DNA of 64,000 bases from Massalongia carnosa (lineage: Eukaryota): the NCBI GenBank assembly GCA_965645245.1, contig OZ287071.1, positions 868,001 through 932,000 of the forward strand. Reading direction: 5' to 3'. Numbering within the stretch: position 1 is the first letter of the stretch; each line of letters starts with the position of its first letter. The position numbers and the translations under genes were made by a program. The notes beneath the pieces are model-generated. The model was not told the origin of the DNA and searched no databases. It saw nothing but the letters and a program-made list of their open reading frames with translations. Of the stretch, positions 28,279 through 60,602 are shown in pieces.

Positions 28279-28339
28279 AGGTAAATCCGATGGACCGCAC
28301 CCGGAGCGTAGCTCCGGGTGCGGTCCATCGGATTTACCT
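28279..28339. repeat. Perfect 29-bp inverted repeat with 3-nt GTA loop
   Basis: AGGTAAATCCGATGGACCGCACCCGGAGC-GTA-GCTCCGGGTGCGGTCCATCGGATTTACCT. Confidence 0.95.
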
Positions 28340-29799: not shown

Positions 29800-30299
29800 A
29801 ACTGTACTTGTATTGATAATCTTTTGCTTTGGAAATGATGCTTTTAGTTGACTTTGATGAAGAAGCAAACATGATACGATGATTTAATGTCGAGGTACGC
29901 AGATGATCTTTACAAGTAAGTCAAACGCGTATTTACTAATTCTTGAAACTGACTAAAAGTACTAGCTTGGGGAAGTCAATGTAATATATCTGTGAATCCA
30001 GAGTATACTTAGATCAATACTCTTTATGTAAATAATCAACTACTCAAATAACCAACCAAACTGTCCTATCACTCTACAGTACCTTGTACTCCGTAATAAG
30101 TACAGTGCACCCTAATTACAATAAGCTGTTTTTTCTAGAGGATCAAATTGTTTCATCGTTATGAACAGATTCGCCAAACGGTATAGTAGATTAGCTGGCT
30201 TACTGATTTATCCTATCAAGCACCGCTTTGTCAACAGTAGTTTTACTAATTTTGTACTAGCTCGCTATTAAATTATGCTTACACTACCAGATCCGTGTC

Positions 30300-30516
30300 A
30301 TATTACCCAACATTACAGCACGGGTCACCTTGGGTAATGATGTGGGTAATAATTACCCAACTTTAATTTTAACGTCCAATATTACCCAACGTTACAGCAC
30401 CATCGCCTTGGGTAATGATGTGGGTAATGGTTACCCAACTTTAAGTTTAACATCCCATATTACCCAACGTTACAGCACCGTCACCTTGGGTAATGATTAC
30501 CCAACTTGAGTTTAAG
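30300..30516. repeat. Left subterminal array: ~78-bp unit x ~3 built from inverted TTACCCAA/TTGGGTAA motifs
   Basis: Units start ATATTACCCAAC(A/G)TTACAGCAC at ~30300, ~30379 and ~30457; the third unit is internally deleted. Confidence 0.9.
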
Positions 30517-30765
30517 TCAATAATATCGTACCCGAGCCAGCTTATCTCCTCCCTCCCCTCTCCTTACGAGAGGTTAGTAAGCAAACATTGACAAGCGCTA
30601 TTGTTTTGTTTGTTAATTTTCTTTTAATTTCCCAGATCCTGTCTTGAAGAAAATATTCTCCTTGCTTTCTCATCCTTCCATCTCTCGCAACCTCTTCCCT
30701 CTTCACAACCTCTTCTATCTTCCATCTCTTTCATCATTTGTTTCTATCTTTACACTCAATCAACA

Positions 30766-32433
30766 ATGGCTCCTCCCAATATTCATAAGCGAAAAGCAGT
30801 AAGATCTATTCCGACCAGGTCATATCGTAATTGCCTTCCGCATCAAAAACATCTGGCTCTCACCTGCTTGGTATCTACACTGGCAATTTGCGCCAATGCA
30901 TGTCTCTGTCTCTTAGTCCGTACAGACTATGCTTCTACGATATGATATAAATAATATTACATGTGGCCGGTGCAGATACCAAGCAGGTGGTGTTTCTGAT
31001 GCGGTAGGAAATCATAACATGACCTAACGGTTTGTTCAGCCATTATCATATATTGATCTTTGAATATTTAGACTCATGCTGGCTTGAACAATCTAGAGCT
31101 TTCAAATACGGCACCTTCAATGCGAAATGGAGACCCTTCGGCTTCTTTGGAGACTGGTACATCCGCATGGGACCTAGCCCTGGCAAGATTCATTTCCATG
31201 TTGATATAAGTAATTTACCATTCTAATTAAATTGTTAAAGGCACTTCTCTGGGTAATGCGCCGTCATCGTCGTCTTCAAATAACCCGCATCCTCGATCAG
31301 CAACCGACTCTACGCGATTACCGCTTGCTATGCAAAGTCCTGTATTTACATCAGAGCAAGCCGCTATCTTTCGATCGATTCAACGGGAAGATCTTTTGGA
31401 TCATGACCTTGTCGAAACTTTTATCAAGGTATGGCATGAACTTGTTGCCTCTCTTAATATGTATGTAATCGCACACGTCAATGTCTCATGTTTTATTTAG
31501 AACATGCTTTTTAATGATACATATTAGAGTTCCACGGGGTACCAACTAGCATCTATATACAAGCTTCAGTTGCAAAATAGGAAGGAGATCACACGGATTA
31601 AAAAGGAAGCCAAATCTACAAAATATGCCACAGAGCTGCGGGCGGTTTGTGTAATCTTTCAGAATAATACTTGTGGCTCATGTTTGCAGATAATCAGACC
31701 CATAATACGCCGACGCTTAACTTTGGAACGATACAAAGAAAGCACATGGAGCGATCCCAAGCAAGTATTAGTACGTTATCGTTAGGCTCGTTTGGTATTC
31801 CATAGCTAATACTGTCGTTAAGACCTCATTACGAGGTCATTTTCCTTCCGACCTAATACTTCTAGACAATGCTGTCGCTTTAGTGGGGAAAGTCCGCATA
31901 GAGAAAAAGGCTAAACTAAAGGAACGACTCCTCAAGTGTCAAGATGTTGTCGATAAACCTCTTGCGGATTTTGCCGAATGCCTAAGGTCAGAAGTGGACT
32001 CGGAGACCAAACATGTGGACAATGATATGTCTTTGTGGAAAGCAGCAGCTTGTTGGGTAGGCTTCCCTTCATATTGTTGTCTTGCATCTTGTTTATTGCA
32101 AAAGCTAATATCAATGAATGATAGAGATATGTTGTTCTTGAGCAGATGGAAAAGAAAGAAGGAAGTTTCTAGTTCCAGGTTGATAAGATTTTGATGAATA
32201 TAGACGCAGACTGGTACGTCAAACTGAATAACTCTTATCTTTTCTGTGGTAGAGTTTCTTCATGAACTAATTTGAACAGGGACTTTTATACTCCTGACGT
32301 ATTAGAGTATGGTCTTGCGTCTCTAAGTGACGGCTTAACTTTAGCTCAAAATCCCACTCTCGATACTACTTTAGATTCGAATAATACAACACCGCTGGCA
32401 GAGGATGAAGATAACGATAATTCTACTGAATAA
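30766..32433 (+). pseudogene. Element-borne gene of unknown function (~340 aa, 8-9 exons) with one in-frame TAG at 32170-32172
   Basis: Exons 30766-~30818, 30976-31003 (tentative), 31072-31156, 31241-31428, 31528-31644, 31690-31770, 31823-32056, 32125-32213, 32280-32433 join in phase at GT-AG sites. Confidence 0.7.
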
Positions 32434-32760
32434 GGCGAGTTGAGTTGTTCTAGGCTAGGAATTGATCCACTGGACGGTTGTTTCTTGATCGGTCGGACTG
32501 AGCTCAAAGAAAGGAAGGGGGGAAGGGCCGGGCAGACATAGACTGTACAGGTTTTATATATGAAGATAATGTGATCTGGGTATCATTGTCTATACGAGAA
32601 AGCCTAATCATTAGATATCCTCGAGACAGATTAAATACAAGTTTTTTCTTCGATTTTGATTCAGGATGCAGATTTGGCGGCGGCGCCAGTGAGCCTGTAA
32701 TATTGAGTCGCAAGCTCCAAACTAAGTTTAATGCATCATGAGTCATCATTATACGTTAAA

Positions 32761-32912
32761 TGAGGTAATGGTTACCCGATTGTTGGGTAATGGTTACCCA
32801 ATTATGCTCCTCATCATTATGTAACGTTATCCCCTCATGGTGGTAAAACATTGATAGAAAACATTACCCAACGTTACATAAGGATACAACCGTAACCATT
32901 AGGTAACGTTAT
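32761..32912. repeat. Right subterminal repeats of the CACTA-ended element
   Basis: GGTAATGGTTACCC twice, TTGGGTAA, ATTACCCAACGTTACA and GTAACGTTAT twice; same motif family as the left array. Confidence 0.8.
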
Positions 32913-33474
32913 GCAGATATGGTAGTGTAGTATGCTTTCTAGCTCACCAAAAAAACTAAACGATATCGGAATAGAGAAGTTATCGTCTAAGAAAATAATC
33001 GATTCCACGTAGTCAAATCGCTATAAGCAGATTATCAAGATCGCTATAGCCAGGGTGCACTGTAGATGCGATACAGATTGATTCATTGCAGAATATTAAC
33101 CTTGAGCGGGATGGTAGAGCTGATCGGGAATTCTTATATCTCCTTATTAAAATTCGCTTTCAGTTGCGGGGACAAGACTGGCTAACCATGACGAGAAATT
33201 TTGGTGCTTGGGCTAGAAGTGCGTATGATGGTTCAATGTGCATTGATGATGATGATGTATTCATACTCCGATATGACACCGGCCGTAGGCCGGCCCATGC
33301 GGGCAAAGCTATCTAAGTTATGTTACATGGAAAACCTTTCACAGGTGTAAAAACCATATCCCATGATAACCGTCCGATGTGACTACGGGTCGACGTCGGG
33401 CGGGAGACGCAGTGCAAAAGACGTGTGGGAACTGTAATGCCTTGTGAAAAGAGAAGAAAGAAAGAAAGGTTCAA

Positions 33475-36400
33475 CTACTGTTGATTGTACAATAATGTTG
33501 ATGCTAGTGAGAACTGATTCAATAAGCCTATTTTCATTAGCCAAGCAGTTAGTATCTTCAGAGTTTTTGATGATTCGGTCAGCTGCTGATAGTCGCTCGT
33601 GCCGGCGGCGCGAAACATCTGTTCTCTATTGTCAATAAGTCTGCAGAACATGATTACATGTTCTGGAGTTTGTCTGTGCCAGCCACATGAGCAGGCCGGT
33701 GAGGTGACGGAGGGCACCCGTCGCTTGTAGAGGAAGTCAGCTAACCCGATTTTGCCAGTGCGGATTTGAGTTGTTAGAGCGCTTTCTGCCTTTTTTAGCT
33801 GCGTGTGTATTTTCAGCCGTTTTTTGCTCAGTGGGACTGATTGTGCTATGGAGGGTTCGATGACGTGATTTTGATATGCGCACCACGAGTCGTTCCAGAC
33901 CTTCATTTGTCGTGCTTTAATTGTTTGCATCTGCTTGTGTCGGGCCGTTGCCGCAACGGTAGCTTCGCGGTGCCACGCCGGGTAGACTTCGAACCATGGT
34001 GGTTGTGCCTTTGGTGGTTGAACTATTTTGAGTCGATCAGTAGGCTTTTGGCCCAGATGTGTTTCAGCTCTCCCGGGGTGGGTTTTTGAAGTCGTTTGCG
34101 ACCTGCCTTGCCTCGAAGTTTTTCAGCTATTTTGTTGCATGCGGAGGAGATGATCTTCAATTGGCCTCCGGCTCGGAGCCGGTGCCTTGCCTGTGCTTGT
34201 AGCATGTCGAGATACGTGTCTATGGGCGCTATGAATGTCTCTACTTCTAGTACTGAGATGGGAGTAGCTTTAAAGGCACCGGCTATGGTGCGAAGGCAAT
34301 TGTTTTGCATGACGGAGAGCTTGCTCGTTGACGTTTTTGACTTTTTGACTTCTTTGGGCATGTGCCATACGGTTGACCTATATGTCATGGCCGGACGCAC
34401 CACGGCACTATAAACTTGCCTTGCCTTGGCGAAGGTGGCACCCCAGGTTGATGTGGAAATTTTTGTCAATGCCATGGATTGTTTGACCATTTTCTCTTGC
34501 GTTTTGCGAACGTGCGGTCCCCATTTCAATTTGGTGTCGATTTGTAGGCCCAATACTCTGATGTCCGTTTTTGGTTCAATTTCGGTGCTAGCAATATTGA
34601 TAGATGCAGTCATGTTGAATCTTTTGGGATTTCTGGACAAGTGTATGAGTTCGTACTTCGTCGGAGCAAATACGGATCCGTGCCGTGAAGCCCACGTCTC
34701 ACATTGTCTGTGTATTGCCTCTAGAGTTTTGCAGTTTTCCTCGGTGCTTTTCCATATGCCAAAATGTTTGCATCGTCTACGAATCCTATGGCACTTGTGT
34801 TTTTGCCTGGTCGATCACATATTTCCAATAGATCTGCATTTTAAAATAGGTAAAGAATGGATGACAGGGGAGAGCCCTGCGGGATACCCGTTCTTACCGC
34901 AAACCGCCCGGTGACTTTTCGATTTATTGCTAAAGTGGTGCTTCGATCGCTCAGAAAGCTGTTTAACCAGTCGGTGATCCATTTTGGAATTTTTCTTTTC
35001 CGTAGGTTGTGCGTTAGTCGTTGATGTGATACCGTATCGAACGCGCCGGCGACGTCCATGCTTAGCAGTGTGGCTACTTTGTCTTTTCCCTGTCCCCAAA
35101 TCGTGTGAACCTGTTCAGTTAGCAGTTCCAGTGCTGACTCTGTGGATCTGCCCTTCCTTGCTCCCATCTGTGTGTCGGGTAGGAGCCGGTGTGTTTCCGC
35201 TAGATAGGTTATTTTCGATCCAATGATGAATTCCATAACTTTACTGAGCGTGTTGAGCAGTGCAATTGGTCGGTAGGCTTTCGGCGTGGTATAGTCTCCT
35301 TTGCCTATTTTTTTCAGCGCTAATGTGTTTGCCATTTTGAAAGCCCGCGGGTGGTACGAGTGTGTGACTCACGCCTGAAACAGAGGTGTTAGTAGTTCGA
35401 CAAGTTTTTCGCTGCATGCTTTGAGTATTCTGTTAGATATGCCGTCTGGGCCCGGTGCCTTATCGGACTTGAGCCGACTCAGGGCCGTCGATACTTCTGA
35501 CTTGGTGATAATTATTGGGCAGTGCGGCGATGTAGGATAGAAGGATCCTTCTATGTCGCTTAGGTCGGCCGGTGGTGGTGCGGGAAAGAAGACACCTTTC
35601 AGCATTTCGGCTTTTTGGTCAAACGTGTCTGCTACTCGGTCATTGAATTTTAGCATCGGCATTTTGGATACTTCTCTAGATAGATGACTTTTGTCTTTGG
35701 CCCATTTCGCTAGCCGCCATAGTCCCGGAGGCGTTTCGGTGGCCTTACTGATTTCTTGACGAAAGTTTGTTCTCTTTGCGTTTTGAATGATTTTCTGTTT
35801 TTTATCATTGGATTTCATATAGTTAGACCAGTCCGTTAGGTCTAACGTGCTGGACCATATGCGGCGTAGTTTCCTTGTGGCTTTGGTGGCAATGCTGCAT
35901 TCTTCTGTCCAGAATGGCTTAGCATATTTGCTAGATTTTGCCCATGGAACTGCTTCATTGATGACATTTTGTAGAAACTTTTGAATCGATTCCGTGTACG
36001 CATCAATCTCGGCAGTGGTGCGGGGAGACTCTGGTATAGGGGCGTGTCGTTCGGCCTCCCTTAATTTTTCCAGGTTTAGAAGTTTCCATGCTCTGCGTTT
36101 GATTTTCGGTTGCGGTTCGCTTCCGAGTAGGATGCGGGTTGATATCGGTACGTGATCGGATGATTGATTCAATTCTGGTCTGGACATGCAGTGTTCGAGT
36201 CTTTCGGCTAGATATTCTGACATGAAAACCAAATCTATCGTGCTAGACGTGTTTCTTGCTTCCCATGTTACGGTGCCTTTCGGCAGTGTCAACGAAAGAT
36301 TATGATCATCGATTATTTCTAGTAATTGATCAGCAGCAGCGTGTTGTGTGGGTCTTGAGGGACCATTCCAAAAGGGATGATGCAGGTTGAAATCTCCAAG

Positions 36401-36838
36401 TAGTATGTGATGCGCATCGGCGGTAAGCATGCTCCGAGCCGCCGGTAAGGTCGTGGGACTGTCAGTGGATGAATAGGAGGCGGGAGAGGGGTTATACACA
36501 TTATGGACGTGAATTGTTTCCATAACGCCTTCGGTGTAGGTCTTTATTTTCAAAGTGCACATGTCGGCCGAGGTGAATTCCACCTCCCAGCTGTCAGTGT
36601 CTATTAGGTCGTTGACATAAAAGCACACTCTGGTGTCATCTCCTGGGCGGTATAGGAGGTGAAAGCCGCTTTGATGAGAACTAAGCGATGTGGGGGCGGA
36701 TGGATTGCGCCACGGTTCCTGTATTGCAATAATATCATAGTCCTGGGTGTTTGTGTCTGCTAAGAGGGGTATCATAGTACTCACTCTGTCATTTCTGACA
36801 TTATACTGCAATATAGAGAGGGATTTTGTGTCCCTCAT
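33475..36838 (-). pseudogene. LINE ORF2 (apurinic endonuclease - reverse transcriptase - zinc knuckle)
   Basis: APE: LQYNV, IAIQEPW, GDFNLHH, TIDL, SDH. RT: KAPGPDGI, YRPIALLNTL, LSMDVAGAFD, GIPQGSPLS, GFVDD. CSCG..QTPEHVIMFC. Stops at 35369 and 34841; -1 frameshifts near 34750 and 34025. Confidence 0.92.
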
Positions 36839-38322
36839 AGGATTTCCATCGTTTCGGCCGCTGTGTTCGATGTGAACTGAGTTCCTGCCGTTAATGCTAC
36901 GGAATCTGCACGAGGCTTACCCAGCACTGGTTTTGCTAAGCTCTTTACCATATTTTCAGGATTCATGATGCCTATATTAGCCCAGGTGGGTGCGTCGTCT
37001 CCCCGATGAGGGCCCGGGGGTGTGCCGGATGAGGGCGTAGCGTTGTGTATTTTTCTTCTCTTGCCGTTTACTATCTTCCACGTTGACGGAATTTCGTCCG
37101 TTTGTGTGACTGTGGGTGTCGACTCTCGTTGAAGTTGAAATTGAAATGAGGGCGGTTGTAATTCGATTGCATAGAGGGGGGCGCGGTTTTGCATTGCTAT
37201 TTCAGTTTTTCGCTTTTCAGCTTTTCAGACTTTGCATGCTGTAGACCATGCTTCGTGTCCCTTCTCTCCGCATACGACGCAACGGCGGTATTGCCCCGTT
37301 GTCTCCAGATTGCATTCTTTGCTTTGATGTCCACCGGCGCAGTGACCACAGGCGGCGGGATTGCGGCATGATCTACCGATGTGTCCGTATTTTTGGCAGT
37401 TGAAGCATTGAGTCATGGTGCAACCACGTGTAAAGCGCTCGCAGTCCTTTATTTCGTAGCTTTCCATTAGGCCCTCGGTAATGAGCCGGTTAGCCATCTC
37501 GGCGGTGGCGACCTCTATATGAAGCGTCGAGTACGCTTTTTTCTCTCTGATGGCCTTGATTGACCAGGCTATTTTAACGATCTTCAAGTTAGGGTGCAGG
37601 CGTGCGTTAGCGGCCTGAAGGTAGGTGATGGCTGTTGATTGATTGGCCACTTTGATGTTTTCCACCCTGATTCCATTCGCTCTTACGGTGAAGGTGCGGG
37701 TGTGCACCGCAGCTGAGGCGGCCACCATGCGGGTCCAATCGGTCTTCTCCTGCAGGGTCTTCTTTGCTTCCAATGACTCTGCGTGAATCCTGATGTCGCC
37801 GTTTAACAAACGCGACACTCCCCTTATTCCTTCAGCTCCATTTTGTAGTGTTTCTACCAACTCCTTGGTTGGCATTAGCTTCATTTTTTCCTTGTCCGCA
37901 TCCTCCGTGATGTGAACGGTGATTTCCCGGGCACGTCGCGCTTCTCTTGGTGTGGGTGCTTTGTCTTTGCGGGCCTGTTGAGGCTTGATGTTTTGGTTCT
38001 TTGGGGGTGCGGGCTCATCTCGGCCTTGCCCTGTGGCAGCAGCGGCATAGCTGCGAGGAGTGGTCTCATTGCGCTCTATGCGTGTCAATGATTGTTGGAT
38101 TGCCTGTAATGTGTCACCTATGTTGATGGGAGTTTCTGCAACTTTGTCATCGACTAGATTTTGCGCTTGCAAAATTTCCGCTGAGTTTCTCAGCAACTGC
38201 AACGCCTCCGGGTCACCAACAGTGCCCACTCGATTAAGATACTCCTTGATCTTTACGTGCAAACCTTTCCTCCTTTCGCTGTGCGCTCTCGAGAGCGCGT
38301 TTGATTGTTCGAGTGCAGTCAT
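36835..38322 (-). pseudogene. LINE ORF1 (gag-like nucleic-acid-binding protein)
   Basis: Starts MTALEQSN at 38322; knuckles CFNCQKYGHIGRSC, CGHCAGGHQSKEC, CVVCGEKGHEAWSTAC. A single in-frame TGA at 37225-37227, after which the frame continues into ORF 36835..37194. Confidence 0.88.
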
Positions 38323-38925
38323 TTTCCCCTTATCAATGTGCATTGATAATTCATCACGGACAAGTAATGGGACTAAAATGAAGCTATTAAATGTCTTGAT
38401 CAAAGTTAATTATATCTGCATTTCAGTTTGAAGAACGGGTCAACGCGAGAAACTCATGCCAAAAATGTTAGGTATGTGTTTATTGCGCTGCACCCGATAA
38501 CTACTCTGTATTTAAGAGATCTTATACTTCTTTATCGGATTTCTTTTCCCTTCGCTTCTCTTTCTCCGACGAATGATATATGAAAGCTTCACCCCATTTT
38601 TTACTCGTACGCCCCTATAGTTTCAAGTATTTGACTCGTTAAGACTCTGGGTTTCTGACAGCAATCTGCCAAGAGTCAACCTGTCGTATCTAACGTTGTT
38701 ATCCTTACAAAAAACCTGTTTCTGATATTTTCTCTGCGTTAGATAATCTCGAAAAGAAGTACTATAATGTGTACGAGCAGTTGCATATGCTTGAAACATC
38801 TAATGACGACTTATTTTGATATCAGGAGAAATCCAGAAATCCTTTTAACGTTTATGTAATGTCTCAGTCCTTGAAGCCCTTCGGGTACATAGGAACAATG
38901 AAACGAATGTACGCATTAAAAAAAG

Positions 38926-47280: not shown

Positions 47281-47384
47281 TCTATAGATGTACAAAGACG
47301 TTTATATCAATAACAAAACTCGAAACTAATGAATCTCGTTTGGCGTTGTGCTAAGCATCGTTTTCGCTTACTAGTGCCTGCCCA

Positions 47385-49233
47385 ACGGCTCAAAGTCCAA
47401 AACGGTTCAAAGACCGAATTAACTATGCATGTTCAATTTGACTACGAAAAATCTTCCACCATTTGGTCCTTTCAACCTCCCATTTTTTACGTGCTCGGAG
47501 GAAGATATTGGCCTCACGAAACAGTCCTTTCCAGAGCTTCTTTTCGGCGTTGTCGATGACCTGTTGCTTTTCAATGCGGCCGCTTTAGCTCGGTCCAAGG
47601 CCTTCTGTGCCTTTTCCACTCCATCTTCATGTCGTTTGGTGACTTTAGCACGTACATCTCGAACGGTGATGACCCCACCTGACTGAGCAACAGTTCCAGC
47701 AAGCTTTTTACGCGCTGCCTTAGCAAATGAGGCTCTGGCTGAGGTCAATAAGTCCCTTGCAGCCAATTGCTGAGCATGAGCGCTAGCCATAGCACCTTTG
47801 AAAAAGCGATCGACATGCAACTTATAATTTCCGTCGATAGCATCATTTGTCTGCATGCTTCTTTGAAGTTTAGTGCCAAAGATGATGACCTCAGTGGAAG
47901 TACGAGGTGTTCTGGCCAATAATGGGGCCGATGGTGGGGGTGGAGGGGTAGTCGGCCTTTGACGACTTTGCGCCTCGATTTTCGAGATGACCACATTCGG
48001 ATTATAAGGCACTAGTCCTGTGTTTCTGAATGCAGCTAAAATCGTCGATTTGGTGAATGTTTTGAGGCGCATATCCTGAAAAACCGACAAAAAGTCGATC
48101 TTGTTGAACTCCCCTCCTCCGGCACGAATAGCCTCATCAGCATGATAGTGTTTAAAAGGCTGAAAGCATCCAATGTCCAGTGGTTGGGTCAAATGAGTGG
48201 AATGAGCAGGTAATCCGAACAATTCGATGTGCTCGCTCTGTGCATACTCGAAAAATTCATACGTCATATGAGATCCATATCCGTCCAAAATCAACAACCT
48301 CCATGCACCAATTTGCCCTTTTGCACTATGTTTATCAAATGTTTCAACCAATCAATAGCGAGATCATCATTCGAATAACCAGTTGAACTGACGGCGAAAA
48401 GAATGTCATCATCCAAATCATTTTCCAGGGCCCATTTCTCCTTTGATTTGTACGCCAGGAAGTATGATCATGGGGGGAATATCCCTTCCTCCACCACTAA
48501 TACTCTCCACCGAGGTGATGTAGTCTCTGTTGTCTGGATCCGTCATCAAAAGAGGCTTATGAGAATGAGTCGAAATCACCCAATGAGCTCTTCCACAGCC
48601 AATTCGAAAGCCCGTTTCATCCATGTTCCAGGTGTCCTCGTCCACGATTCCCCTCAATTCTCGAAGGACCTTGTACTGCTCAAAATGCTTCATCATACTC
48701 TCCGAATCGTGTGAATGTTTACGCTCAACAGCGAGGGGTTTTTGTTTACGTTTGAAGTACTCCGGATGACGTTTTAAAAACCGTCTGGTCCACATGGCGC
48801 TTACGGTAGGAAGTGGAGTGTCGGTTTGATCACGATCAATTTGTCCAACTAATGCTCGACCGAGCAGGTAATTAGCAGCTCCACGAACCATCGAGAGCTT
48901 AGCTGATTGTTCCATATGATCCAATCGCTCAATATAAGCACAAATAGCTTTTTCTTGTGCATCTGTAAGTGCTTTGTTGCTTGATGAACGAGTTGATTTG
49001 GAAGCCCCTCCATTGAGTCTTCGACGAAGTGTCCTCGAATCGACGTGAAATTTTCGAGCGACAGCGCTGGCACTAGAATCATCACTACTGTTATACGCGC
49101 TGATGGCCTCATCAAGACGATTTTCAGAGTCCCAGAACGAATCAGACATGGTGGTGTGGAATGGGCACGCGTTTGGTGAAGGATGAAATAAATGGTTAAT
49201 TTGGTCTTTGAACCGTCTTGGACTTTGAGCCGT
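47385..49233 (-). mobile_element. Fot1/pogo-like (Tc1/mariner superfamily) DNA transposon, 1849 bp, frameshifted transposase
   Basis: 39-bp TIRs ACGGCTCAAAGTCCAA(A/G)ACGGTTCAAAGACC(G/A)AATTAAC (37/39 identical), TA at 49234-49235. Transposase from ATG 49149: HTH/CENP-B-like N-terminus, NMDETG, LILDGYGSH, QPLDIGCF. Confidence 0.93.
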
Positions 49234-49401
49234 TAGGCACTAGTACAGTAAGCGAAAACGATTACTGGTGGTGTGGCACGATTAGACAGAAGTTCGCCGA
49301 ATCTAGCTTGCGTAGTTTTAGGCTTCCTAAGCTCACGCGTTGCTTGCAGTTAGATAGTTTTCTCTCTTAACCTCAAAATAAAATCATTAACAGCAACCAA
49401 T

Positions 49402-52405: not shown

Positions 52406-52911
52406 AGCGAAGGTCGATAGAAAGTCACTTGAAGCAACCCGGATTTCTTGCCGTTCGAGCCCAACAACACCTTCTTTACCGTAGTGGACACCACCCGTGT
52501 GCCGCGTTTTCTACCGAGTTAAAAGCCTACCTACACAACACATCACCTCTCTACCTTATCTTCAACACCTCTCCCGCCCCTTCCCCCCTTTCCTATCCTA
52601 AATAGATATGTACGTTGGTAGATACACCCATCTCTCCCGAACAAGACCCGACCCCTTTTCCGTACCCTGGTGTTTAGCTACGCAACAGACTCTATGCTGT
52701 GAGAGTTGTTTCTGAACTTAAGATTTTGGAGTGCCGGGTAGATGGCTCCCCTGATATTTAGTTGTAGGTATAATATGTTACATGTTAGATATCGTTACAT
52801 AGTGTCACCAAGTGACAACGTCTTGAGAGTCTTTTTCTATTGATAACTTGAGATGTTTTAGCTCAACATTCGTTTTCCAAAGAGTAAAGCAAGAAAGTAA
52901 AAGGGGGTTTT

Positions 52912-53498
52912 GATGATGTATTCATACTCGGATATGACACCGGCCGTAGGCCGGCCCATGCGGGCAAAGCTATCTAAGTTATGTTACATGGAAAACCTTT
53001 CACAGGTGTAAAAACCATGTCCCTTGATACCCGTCCGATGTGACTACGGGTCGACGTCGGGCGGGAGACGCAATGCAAAAGACGTGTGGGAACTGTAATG
53101 CCTTGTGAAAAGAGAAGAAAGAAAGAAAGGTTCAACTATTGTTGATTTTACAATAATGTTGATGCTAGTGAGAATTGATTCAATAAGCCTGTTTTCATTA
53201 GCCAAGCAGTTAGTATCTTCAGAGTTTTTGATGATTTGGTCAGCTACTGATAGTCGCTCGTGCCGGCGGCGCGAAACATCTGTTCTCTATTGTCAATAAG
53301 TCTGCAGAACATGATTACATGTTCTGGAGTTTGTCTGTGCCAGCCACATGAGCAGGCCGGTGAGGTGACGGAGGGCACCCGTCGCTTGTAGAGGAAGTCA
53401 GCTAACCCGATCTTGCCAGTGCGGATTTGAGTTGTTAGAGCGCTTTCTGCCTTTTTTAGCTGCGTGTGTATTTTCAGCCGTTTTTTGCTCAGTGGGAC
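52912..53498 (-). mobile_element. 5'-truncated copy (587 bp) of the same LINE
   Basis: Matches 33251-33837 with about a dozen substitutions by eye; 13-bp TSD AAAAGGGGGTTTT at 52899-52911 and 53499-53511. Confidence 0.95.
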
Positions 53499-60370: not shown

Positions 60371-60602
60371 CACGCGGTGCGAAAAAAAGTTGACACACCG
60401 AAATAAGACTCCCACCAATACATGACTTACTTCTATGATTTGTTTTAAAGGTACAAAACGAATAGTTACTACTTAGATTTATGATTTAAAATCAATTGTT
60501 TGACTTTTACGATCGTACAGAAAGATAATTTTGTAATTGTGTTTTGAGGAGTAAGTTGATGAAATCCTGATTTGGTGTGTCAACTTTTTTTCGAACCGCA
60601 TG
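60371..60602. mobile_element. 232-bp MITE with 29-bp TIRs
   Basis: TIR CA(C/T)GCGGT(G/T)CGAAAAAAAGTTGACACACC (27/29 identical), flanked by CTAGC on both sides; AT-rich interior. Confidence 0.85.

Follow-up and report, generated by a model that had tools for sequence, protein, structure and literature searches.

A TA-flanked CACTA-type transposon in an ascomycete carries a single eight-exon gene, which may encode a TnpA-like adaptor

What is a multi-exon gene with no recognizable domain doing as the only gene of a small transposon? The window that we analyzed is a 64,000-nucleotide stretch of contig OZ287071.1 from Massalongia carnosa. The original prediction, made from these letters alone, was that open reading frames that look like junk are really the exons of one gene within a mobile element, that the gene encodes a protein of about 340 amino acids, and that this protein, by analogy to the plant transposon protein TnpA, binds DNA or counteracts silencing.

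A DNA search of the source genome (an intron-rich ascomycete; 52 Mb in 25 contigs) with positions 30090–33075 exposed a repeated unit at 30282–32927. This unit is a 2,646-bp element with CACTAC...GTAGTG ends; it starts with CACTACCA and finishes with TGGTAGTG. All 22 of the ends in this genome that were caught by our pattern abut a TA, and the flanks beyond are mostly unrelated. The constant target is TA: the third base is unlike on the two sides in several copies, and we did not find the 3-bp target duplication of classical CACTA/EnSpm elements. The element does have the CACTA ends and the subterminal direct and inverted repeats of that classical group. The octamer TTACCCAA has 12 exact occurrences in the window, as compared to 1.7 expected, and all of them lie at the element's two ends. 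The eight-exon gene is the sole cargo (Table 1). Neither this element nor the related element L143 (see below) has the room or the reading frame for a DDE transposase, so the element is non-autonomous. We recovered no empty insertion site: the outer element, into which our element inserted, has three relatives, but these are longer and have only its right end in common.

Table 1. Features of the element and its gene (window positions)
Feature	Position	Strand	Remarks
Whole transposon, 2,646 bp	30282..32927	+	borders agree in sister copies with unrelated flanks
Left TA target-site duplication	30280..30281	.	TA outside 22/22 ends in the source genome and both L143 ends
Right TA target-site duplication	32928..32929	.	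same end-flank comparison as for the left TA
Left subterminal array: 78-bp unit in 2.5 copies; 11 TTACCCA sites in either orientation, some of them forming inverted pairs	30299..30513	.	
Right subterminal region, 5 TTACC(C/T) sites	32770..32905	.	
Outer TA-flanked CAGTGCACCCT...AGGGTGCACTG remnant; separate family, host of the insertion	30103..33062	.	
Exon 1: 11 codons from the ATG; short basic motif that may be a nuclear signal	30766..30798	+	equivalent first exon with phase-0 intron in L143
Inverted repeat in long intron 1, arms ~30817-30884 and 30966-31025, perhaps an old small insertion	30817..31025	.	
Exon 2: low-complexity; one G missing at 31169-72 in the window copy; GC donor 31183, alternative GT donor 31157	31072..31182	+	
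Exon 3	31241..31428	+	
Exon 4: long helix	31528..31644	+	
Exon 5: basic	31690..31770	+	
Exon 6: most conserved; basic helix and LWEAAAxW motif	31823..32056	+	
Exon 7: private stop at 32170-72	32125..32213	+	
Exon 8: acidic tail, stop	32280..32433	+	

Other repeats lie in the same window. A near-complete LINE (33250–38430, minus strand), with gag-like, endonuclease, and reverse transcriptase parts, adjoins the element, and a 300-bp copy of the LINE's 3' end is found 19.7 kb off, at 52911–53210. There is also a pogo/Fot1-like transposon at 47379–49239, whose inverted repeats are 48 bp long and whose transposase is split; a miniature element of 230 bp, with arms of 32 bp, at 60371–60602; and, in low-GC intergenic DNA at 28279–28339, a perfect 29-bp inverted repeat with a 3-nt loop. 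For neighboring elements we use the names Academ, Tc1/mariner, Tad1, and pogo/Fot1.

Our gene model has 8 exons and encodes 335 amino acids, from the ATG in the exon at 30766–30798 to the stop at 32431–33. It lies within 30282–32927, much as had been predicted. The introns are, in order, 273, 58, 99, 45, 52, 68, and 66 nt long; six are GT-AG, and one (31183–31240) is probably GC-AG. The five core introns (31429–31527, 31645–31689, 31771–31822, 32057–32124, and 32214–32279) are GT-AG and in phase, and their GT and AG are kept in every sister copy that covers them. Six consecutive in-phase GT-AG introns had been judged unlikely by chance; the five core introns hold up, and there are six GT-AG introns in all, with the remaining intron probably having a different donor.

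Homologous proteins bear on the splicing as well. With exon 6 as the query, we found P0001, whose cluster contained the 322-aa P0004. P0004, encoded on a short Logan contig, is free of introns and collinear with the gene model across all seven junctions (173–174 identities in 299 aligned pairs). P0054 is a second intron-free homolog that is collinear across splice junctions. The intron-free homologs in public assemblies are 39–58% identical. Because independent intron-free homologs are collinear across the junctions, chance splicing is ruled out, and, by these sequence comparisons, the gene is real. The prediction would have been in trouble if there were no homologs and no spliced transcripts; homologs exist and several of them are spliced. 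We found no RNA from this organism: the four sequencing runs behave as DNA, with no joints at the splice sites, and are no guide to expression.

The window copy is damaged. Its in-frame TAG had been tentatively attributed to a change from TGG, and this was correct: position 32171 is G, giving TGG, in all 12 of the sister copies that cover it, and it is G in all four DNA runs that we compared. The stop at 32170–72 is private to the window copy. The claim that this copy is one base from intact fared worse, as it has a second lesion: one G is missing from the run at 31169–31172. Among the 10 sisters that cover this run, five have the extra G, four lack it, and one has an adjacent 20-bp deletion. 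The G-bearing allele encodes ...AWGPSPG, which matches ...AWGPGPG in P0004, and the intron that follows is then GC-AG (31183–31240). With the GC donor at 31183, the window copy is frameshifted and reaches its first stop at codon 118; only the alternative GT donor upstream, at 31157, would rescue the frame, and the window copy would then be one base from an open frame of 326 aa. The full frame is open in two of the seven completely covered sisters, or in three of seven if the alternative donor is allowed; C3:222363-225013 and C3:2168368-2172886 are intact sisters. Since the frameshifting deletion is common to five copies (the window copy and four sisters), the element may do without an intact gene in cis.

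The source genome has 14 gene-bearing copies. Exon 6 is present at 13 loci (14 matches, two of which are from one frameshifted copy), and one further copy is cut before exon 6. Both ends are present in eight copies, several of which have been broken by later insertions. Divergence from the majority sequence is 0.9–5.2%, with a mild transition bias (C>T and G>A make up 72 of the 145 core changes). Changes that are private to one copy look neutral (32/123 are synonymous, p = 0.39), and shared changes are enriched for synonymous ones (10/22, p = 0.019); the direct comparison of private to shared changes is not significant (p = 0.077), with only 22 changes in the shared set. We found no copy of the gene outside the element in this genome.

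All 17 matches to the right-end motif in this genome are either known copies or a 98-bp right-end stub. The stub occurs at six loci with common flanks (L047–L052, on C4, C6, C8, C9 twice, and C14), having been amplified passively inside a larger repeat. Loci L126 and L127 (C20:136576 and C15:246680) are cut at the same point, window position 31414, and have about 390 bp of different sequence in common beyond it. Loci with just the left end or just the right end are truncated pieces among retroelements.

The closest named homologs come from the lichen fungus Lobaria immixta, in which three proteins (MCJ1270601.1, MCJ1264710.1, and MCJ1267705.1) are annotated as hypothetical. A single L. immixta assembly contains three divergent paralogs, which are 42–80% identical to each other's clades. 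A profile search gave 34 proteins at E ≤ 10, of which about 30 are convincing, and most of these are single-exon calls from metagenomes. An unfiltered homolog search gave 11 representatives, all of 239 aa or less, so we saw no fusion to a transposase. The viral contigs that we scanned contained no homolog. One fragment of the family, P0043, is labeled at its source as "prophage maintenance system killer protein," and is probably a mis-annotated chimeric frame.

A scan of metagenomes (592 candidate stretches) identified at least three loci with the gene or parts of it: L143, L144, and the fragment L145. L143 (2,735 bp) is the one complete distant element among the matches listed. It is a whole 2,195-bp element with a TA on either side, the same two termini, and a homologous gene as the sole cargo. 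If the homologs were ordinary host genes, unlinked to transposons, we would not expect a complete homologous locus between the same ends with TA flanks. The gene in L143 is of the P0054 type and is 39% identical to the window gene. The terminal ~23 bp are near-identical in the two elements, and the right-end 23 bp of L143 nearly equal those of one copy in the source genome; the subterminal regions of L143 have no blastn match to the window element. L143 has few sites that resemble TTACC(C/T), with three near its ends, so this motif is not constant across the family. The L143 copy is decayed: its exon 2 is frameshifted, and one acceptor has degenerated. In L144, the gene runs straight into a similar right subterminal region, which ends just short of the terminus.

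The five core introns have the same positions and phases (0,0,0,0,2) in L143 and L144. The position of intron 1 is also conserved in L143, for a total of six of the seven intron positions; the GC-AG intron is absent from L143. P0025, P0026, and P0054 are spliced products of this distant clade; since the introns of L143 and L144 are missing from them, we regard them as transcript assemblies. Over 215 codons, the protein has 44% identity to that of L144, and synonymous sites are saturated (pS = 0.81) at pN = 0.38, which indicates long-term purifying selection.

The protein has about 110 low-complexity residues, followed by a helical core and an acidic tail. In the AlphaFold2 model, the core contains helices only, namely a 63-residue helix and a bundle (pLDDT is mostly above 85 up to core residue ~120 and low beyond, with a mean of 72, so that the C-terminal third is of low confidence). 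Most conserved positions are basic or aromatic, including a conserved basic helix, and they do not form a D..D..E, C(2)C, or H(3-4)H pattern. Neither of our two models has a beta strand, and hence neither has an RNase H fold. We recognized no catalytic or chromatin-reader motif. That no domain can be recognized had been noticed from the sequence, and database searches agree. Pfam scores were within noise for the exons, the homologs, and the 30 members of the alignment; PF03004 (Transposase_24) matched none of those 30 and none of the full-length homologs; a sequence search of PDB gave 0 matches; and Foldseek gave no match at E ≤ 0.001. The best VIA-align Z scores, 6.4 and 6.9, were to unrelated helical bundles, with residues past ~143 barely covered. 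In the ESM Atlas, unnamed clusters of 320–332 aa from Basidiomycota have feature scores of 0.93–0.95 to the protein. DUF6698 and DUF6532 have feature scores of 0.85–0.88. All of these are a lead only: there is no alignment support, neither DUF has a Pfam match, and the recognition score is under the mark for known families.

If the element is non-autonomous, then its transposase should be encoded elsewhere. In the source genome, we found no element with these ends plus a transposase. The CACTA-related families PF02992, PF13960, and PF06869 have no match there, but none of them passed the cut-off in control genomes either, so these blanks are not proof of absence. The 12 loci with near-matches of the terminus have no further likeness to the element, and by eye we saw no second family with paired ends among the 100 matches listed, of 126, for TACACYACCA. 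As to whether homologs neighbor transposases, we found no homolog next to one.

Two other transposon families were considered as partners and rejected because their ends differ. Plavaka (PF18759) is found at five loci of ~20 kb each, with no blastn match to our element. These copies, in an ascomycete, are 91–98% alike (C12:1987963, C22:47062, C6:195792, C19:1700724, and C20:264204). The other candidates contain DUF6589; they have TTGCCTCAG ends and 8-9-bp duplications (20 loci of 56 matches). About 30 of the 56 are near-identical full-length matches, and a second family is at 66% identity. The main DUF6589 family, such as L106:2553-8556 (C11:835052-841055), is very young. It is 6.0 kb long, bounded by TTGCCTCAG inverted repeats of ~60 bp and target duplications of 8 bp, and it encodes DUF6589 and, on the opposite strand, a RecQ-like helicase. 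This makeup indicates that DUF6589 is the transposase domain of an Academ-type element.

It is useful to compare the element to ESTA, which the accessible text of PMC12730594 defines as EnSpm-like elements with TA duplications. Among the ESTA entries covered in its supplement, the consensus sequences are 7–14 kb with a RAG1-like transposase, and non-autonomous ones are 0.9–2 kb; their ends start with CAC, mostly CAC(C/T)AC, and all are from rust fungi. Our element is like these described ESTA in having 5'-CAC(C/T)AC ends, a TA target duplication, and a fungal host. In contrast, its host is an ascomycete, it spans just 2.6 kb, and it lacks a transposase. The 5'-CA..TG-3' ends that characterize ESTA and CMCT elements, with CAC(C/T)AC in ESTA, are present, and so is the TA duplication (22/22 ends in the source genome and 2/2 in L143); but no DDE transposase bearing the C(2)C and H(3-4)H motifs is encoded. 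The element thus fits ESTA by its ends and target, but cannot be filed there without a transposase.

The other useful comparison is to plants, whose TnpA is described in the accessible text of PMC8195511 as multi-exon, fast-diverging, and binding to subterminal repeats. According to the accessible part of 10.1101/2024.04.02.587720, three SPM families of Arabidopsis have TnpA without TnpD, and TnpA is predicted to have a disordered tail, a coiled-coil dimer, and a basic pocket. In the accessible text of PMC8978399, the protein encoded by the second CACTA frame is given no known function. Maize En/Spm, with its TnpA, and Arabidopsis SPM1/1A/4 resemble our element in their CACTA-type ends, subterminal repeats, and multi-exon second gene, which in SPM1/1A/4 is the second gene alone; the proteins are alike in having a disordered N-terminus, a long helix, and a basic core. 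However, our protein has no PF03004 match or sequence similarity to TnpA and is much shorter, and the target of En/Spm is 3 bp instead of the 2-bp TA. VANC, from the Mutator-like VANDAL elements, is also a transposon-borne and non-catalytic protein with a disordered tail and a long helix, but it belongs to another superfamily, and no similarity was detected. The main text of a preprint on transposons in Peltigerales (10.64898/2026.02.14.705750) does not contain CACTA, EnSpm, or CMC, and the literature that we searched, with most subscription journals and Repbase outside it, gave no account of such a fungal element or protein.

We propose that the protein is a fungal TnpA-like adaptor, which would bind the ends of a transposase-less lineage of ESTA/CACTA type. 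We put the probability of this at roughly 0.55. A non-autonomous cut-and-paste lineage would have kept the second gene alone. We infer that the protein enters the nucleus, where its basic helical core would bind the element's own subterminal repeats and its long helix would mediate self-association. The adaptor would bring the two ends together and recruit a DDE transposase made by another element, and the borrowed enzyme would cut at the CAC ends and insert at TA. DDE transposons of the CMCT clade have ends of this kind, so the transposase would have to come in trans. The terminal 23 bp are conserved while the subterminal regions have diverged, which fits a shared transposase with a family-specific adaptor; an adaptor of this sort would account for the selection that maintains the gene. 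In position, exon richness, and architecture, the retained gene is like the second gene of CACTA elements. The analogy to TnpA fits the anatomy and has a precedent in the TnpA-only families of plants, but we found no homolog beside a transposase. Also counting against an adaptor are that neither sequence nor fold ties the protein to TnpA or to any DNA-binding domain, that we found no transposase between these ends in the source genome, that the motif is sparse in L143, that the frameshift is shared, that the synonymous excess among shared changes comes from 22 changes, and that we saw a single complete distant element.

The one-gene layout might instead be recurrent: each family could be a short-lived internal-deletion derivative of a two-gene autonomous parent, arising independently, with the long-term selection acting in the parent. 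Non-autonomous CACTA elements usually originate in this way, ESTA consensus sequences are 7–14 kb (supplement of PMC12730594), and the L143 copy is decayed. On the other hand, the one-gene layout is common to two distant families, at 2.6 and 2.2 kb, the L144 gene runs straight into the right subterminal region, and the source genome has no longer parent with these ends. We regard this as possible but doubtful; because it concerns history and not protein function, it is compatible with an adaptor. A role in countering silencing would not conflict with an adaptor either. Outside of the transpososome, like VANC or TnpA in its second role, the protein would bind motifs and shield the family from methylation or RIP. 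The copies are just 0.9–5.2% from the majority with a mild transition bias, and counter-silencing cargo (TET/JBP) is known in fungal DNA transposons (accessible text of PMC12730594). We still consider this role unlikely, as the protein has no catalytic or chromatin-reader motif that we recognized, and the mild decay may merely reflect weak RIP in this host, which is possible because the Academ-type and Plavaka copies are also nearly intact.

Gene capture is frequent in CACTA elements (accessible text of PMC8195511), and this gene is intron-rich like a host gene and has transcribed homologs, so it might be captured cargo, either passive or of benefit to the host. This seems improbable, given that no copy exists outside the element in the source genome, that one Lobaria immixta assembly has three divergent paralogs, and that the element context is kept at 39% identity, far beyond the usual lifetime of passive cargo. 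We give the least credence to the idea that the protein is itself the mobilizing enzyme, as a non-DDE transposase or recombinase. It is the sole gene in two distant complete elements, and the family spread recently with no partner found, but the searches for a partner had no positive control, the ends are of the DDE-type ESTA/CACTA kind, and the protein has no beta strand in either model and no D..D..E, C(2)C, or H(3-4)H. We found no cognate transposase in the 25 contigs of the source genome, where the family recently reached 14 copies. We also thought about a long-lived lineage that is mobilized by a single fold-less helical protein. This protein would be a non-DDE transposase of a new kind, or else an adaptor through which an unrelated transposase or a host nuclease is redirected to CACTAC/TA ends; we consider this scenario very unlikely.

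The protein family has no name, and so far its members are merely "hypothetical." It is tied to a type of transposon that the accessible text of PMC12730594 describes only from rust fungi. For annotators, such elements look gene-free or look like host genes. Binding is directly approachable, since nature provides intact copies and the candidate site is a defined 7 bp. If the protein is an adaptor, then it would offer a small, single-gene handle on how ends are paired in two-component CACTA-type transposons outside of plants, and on how an element without a transposase keeps a gene under selection.
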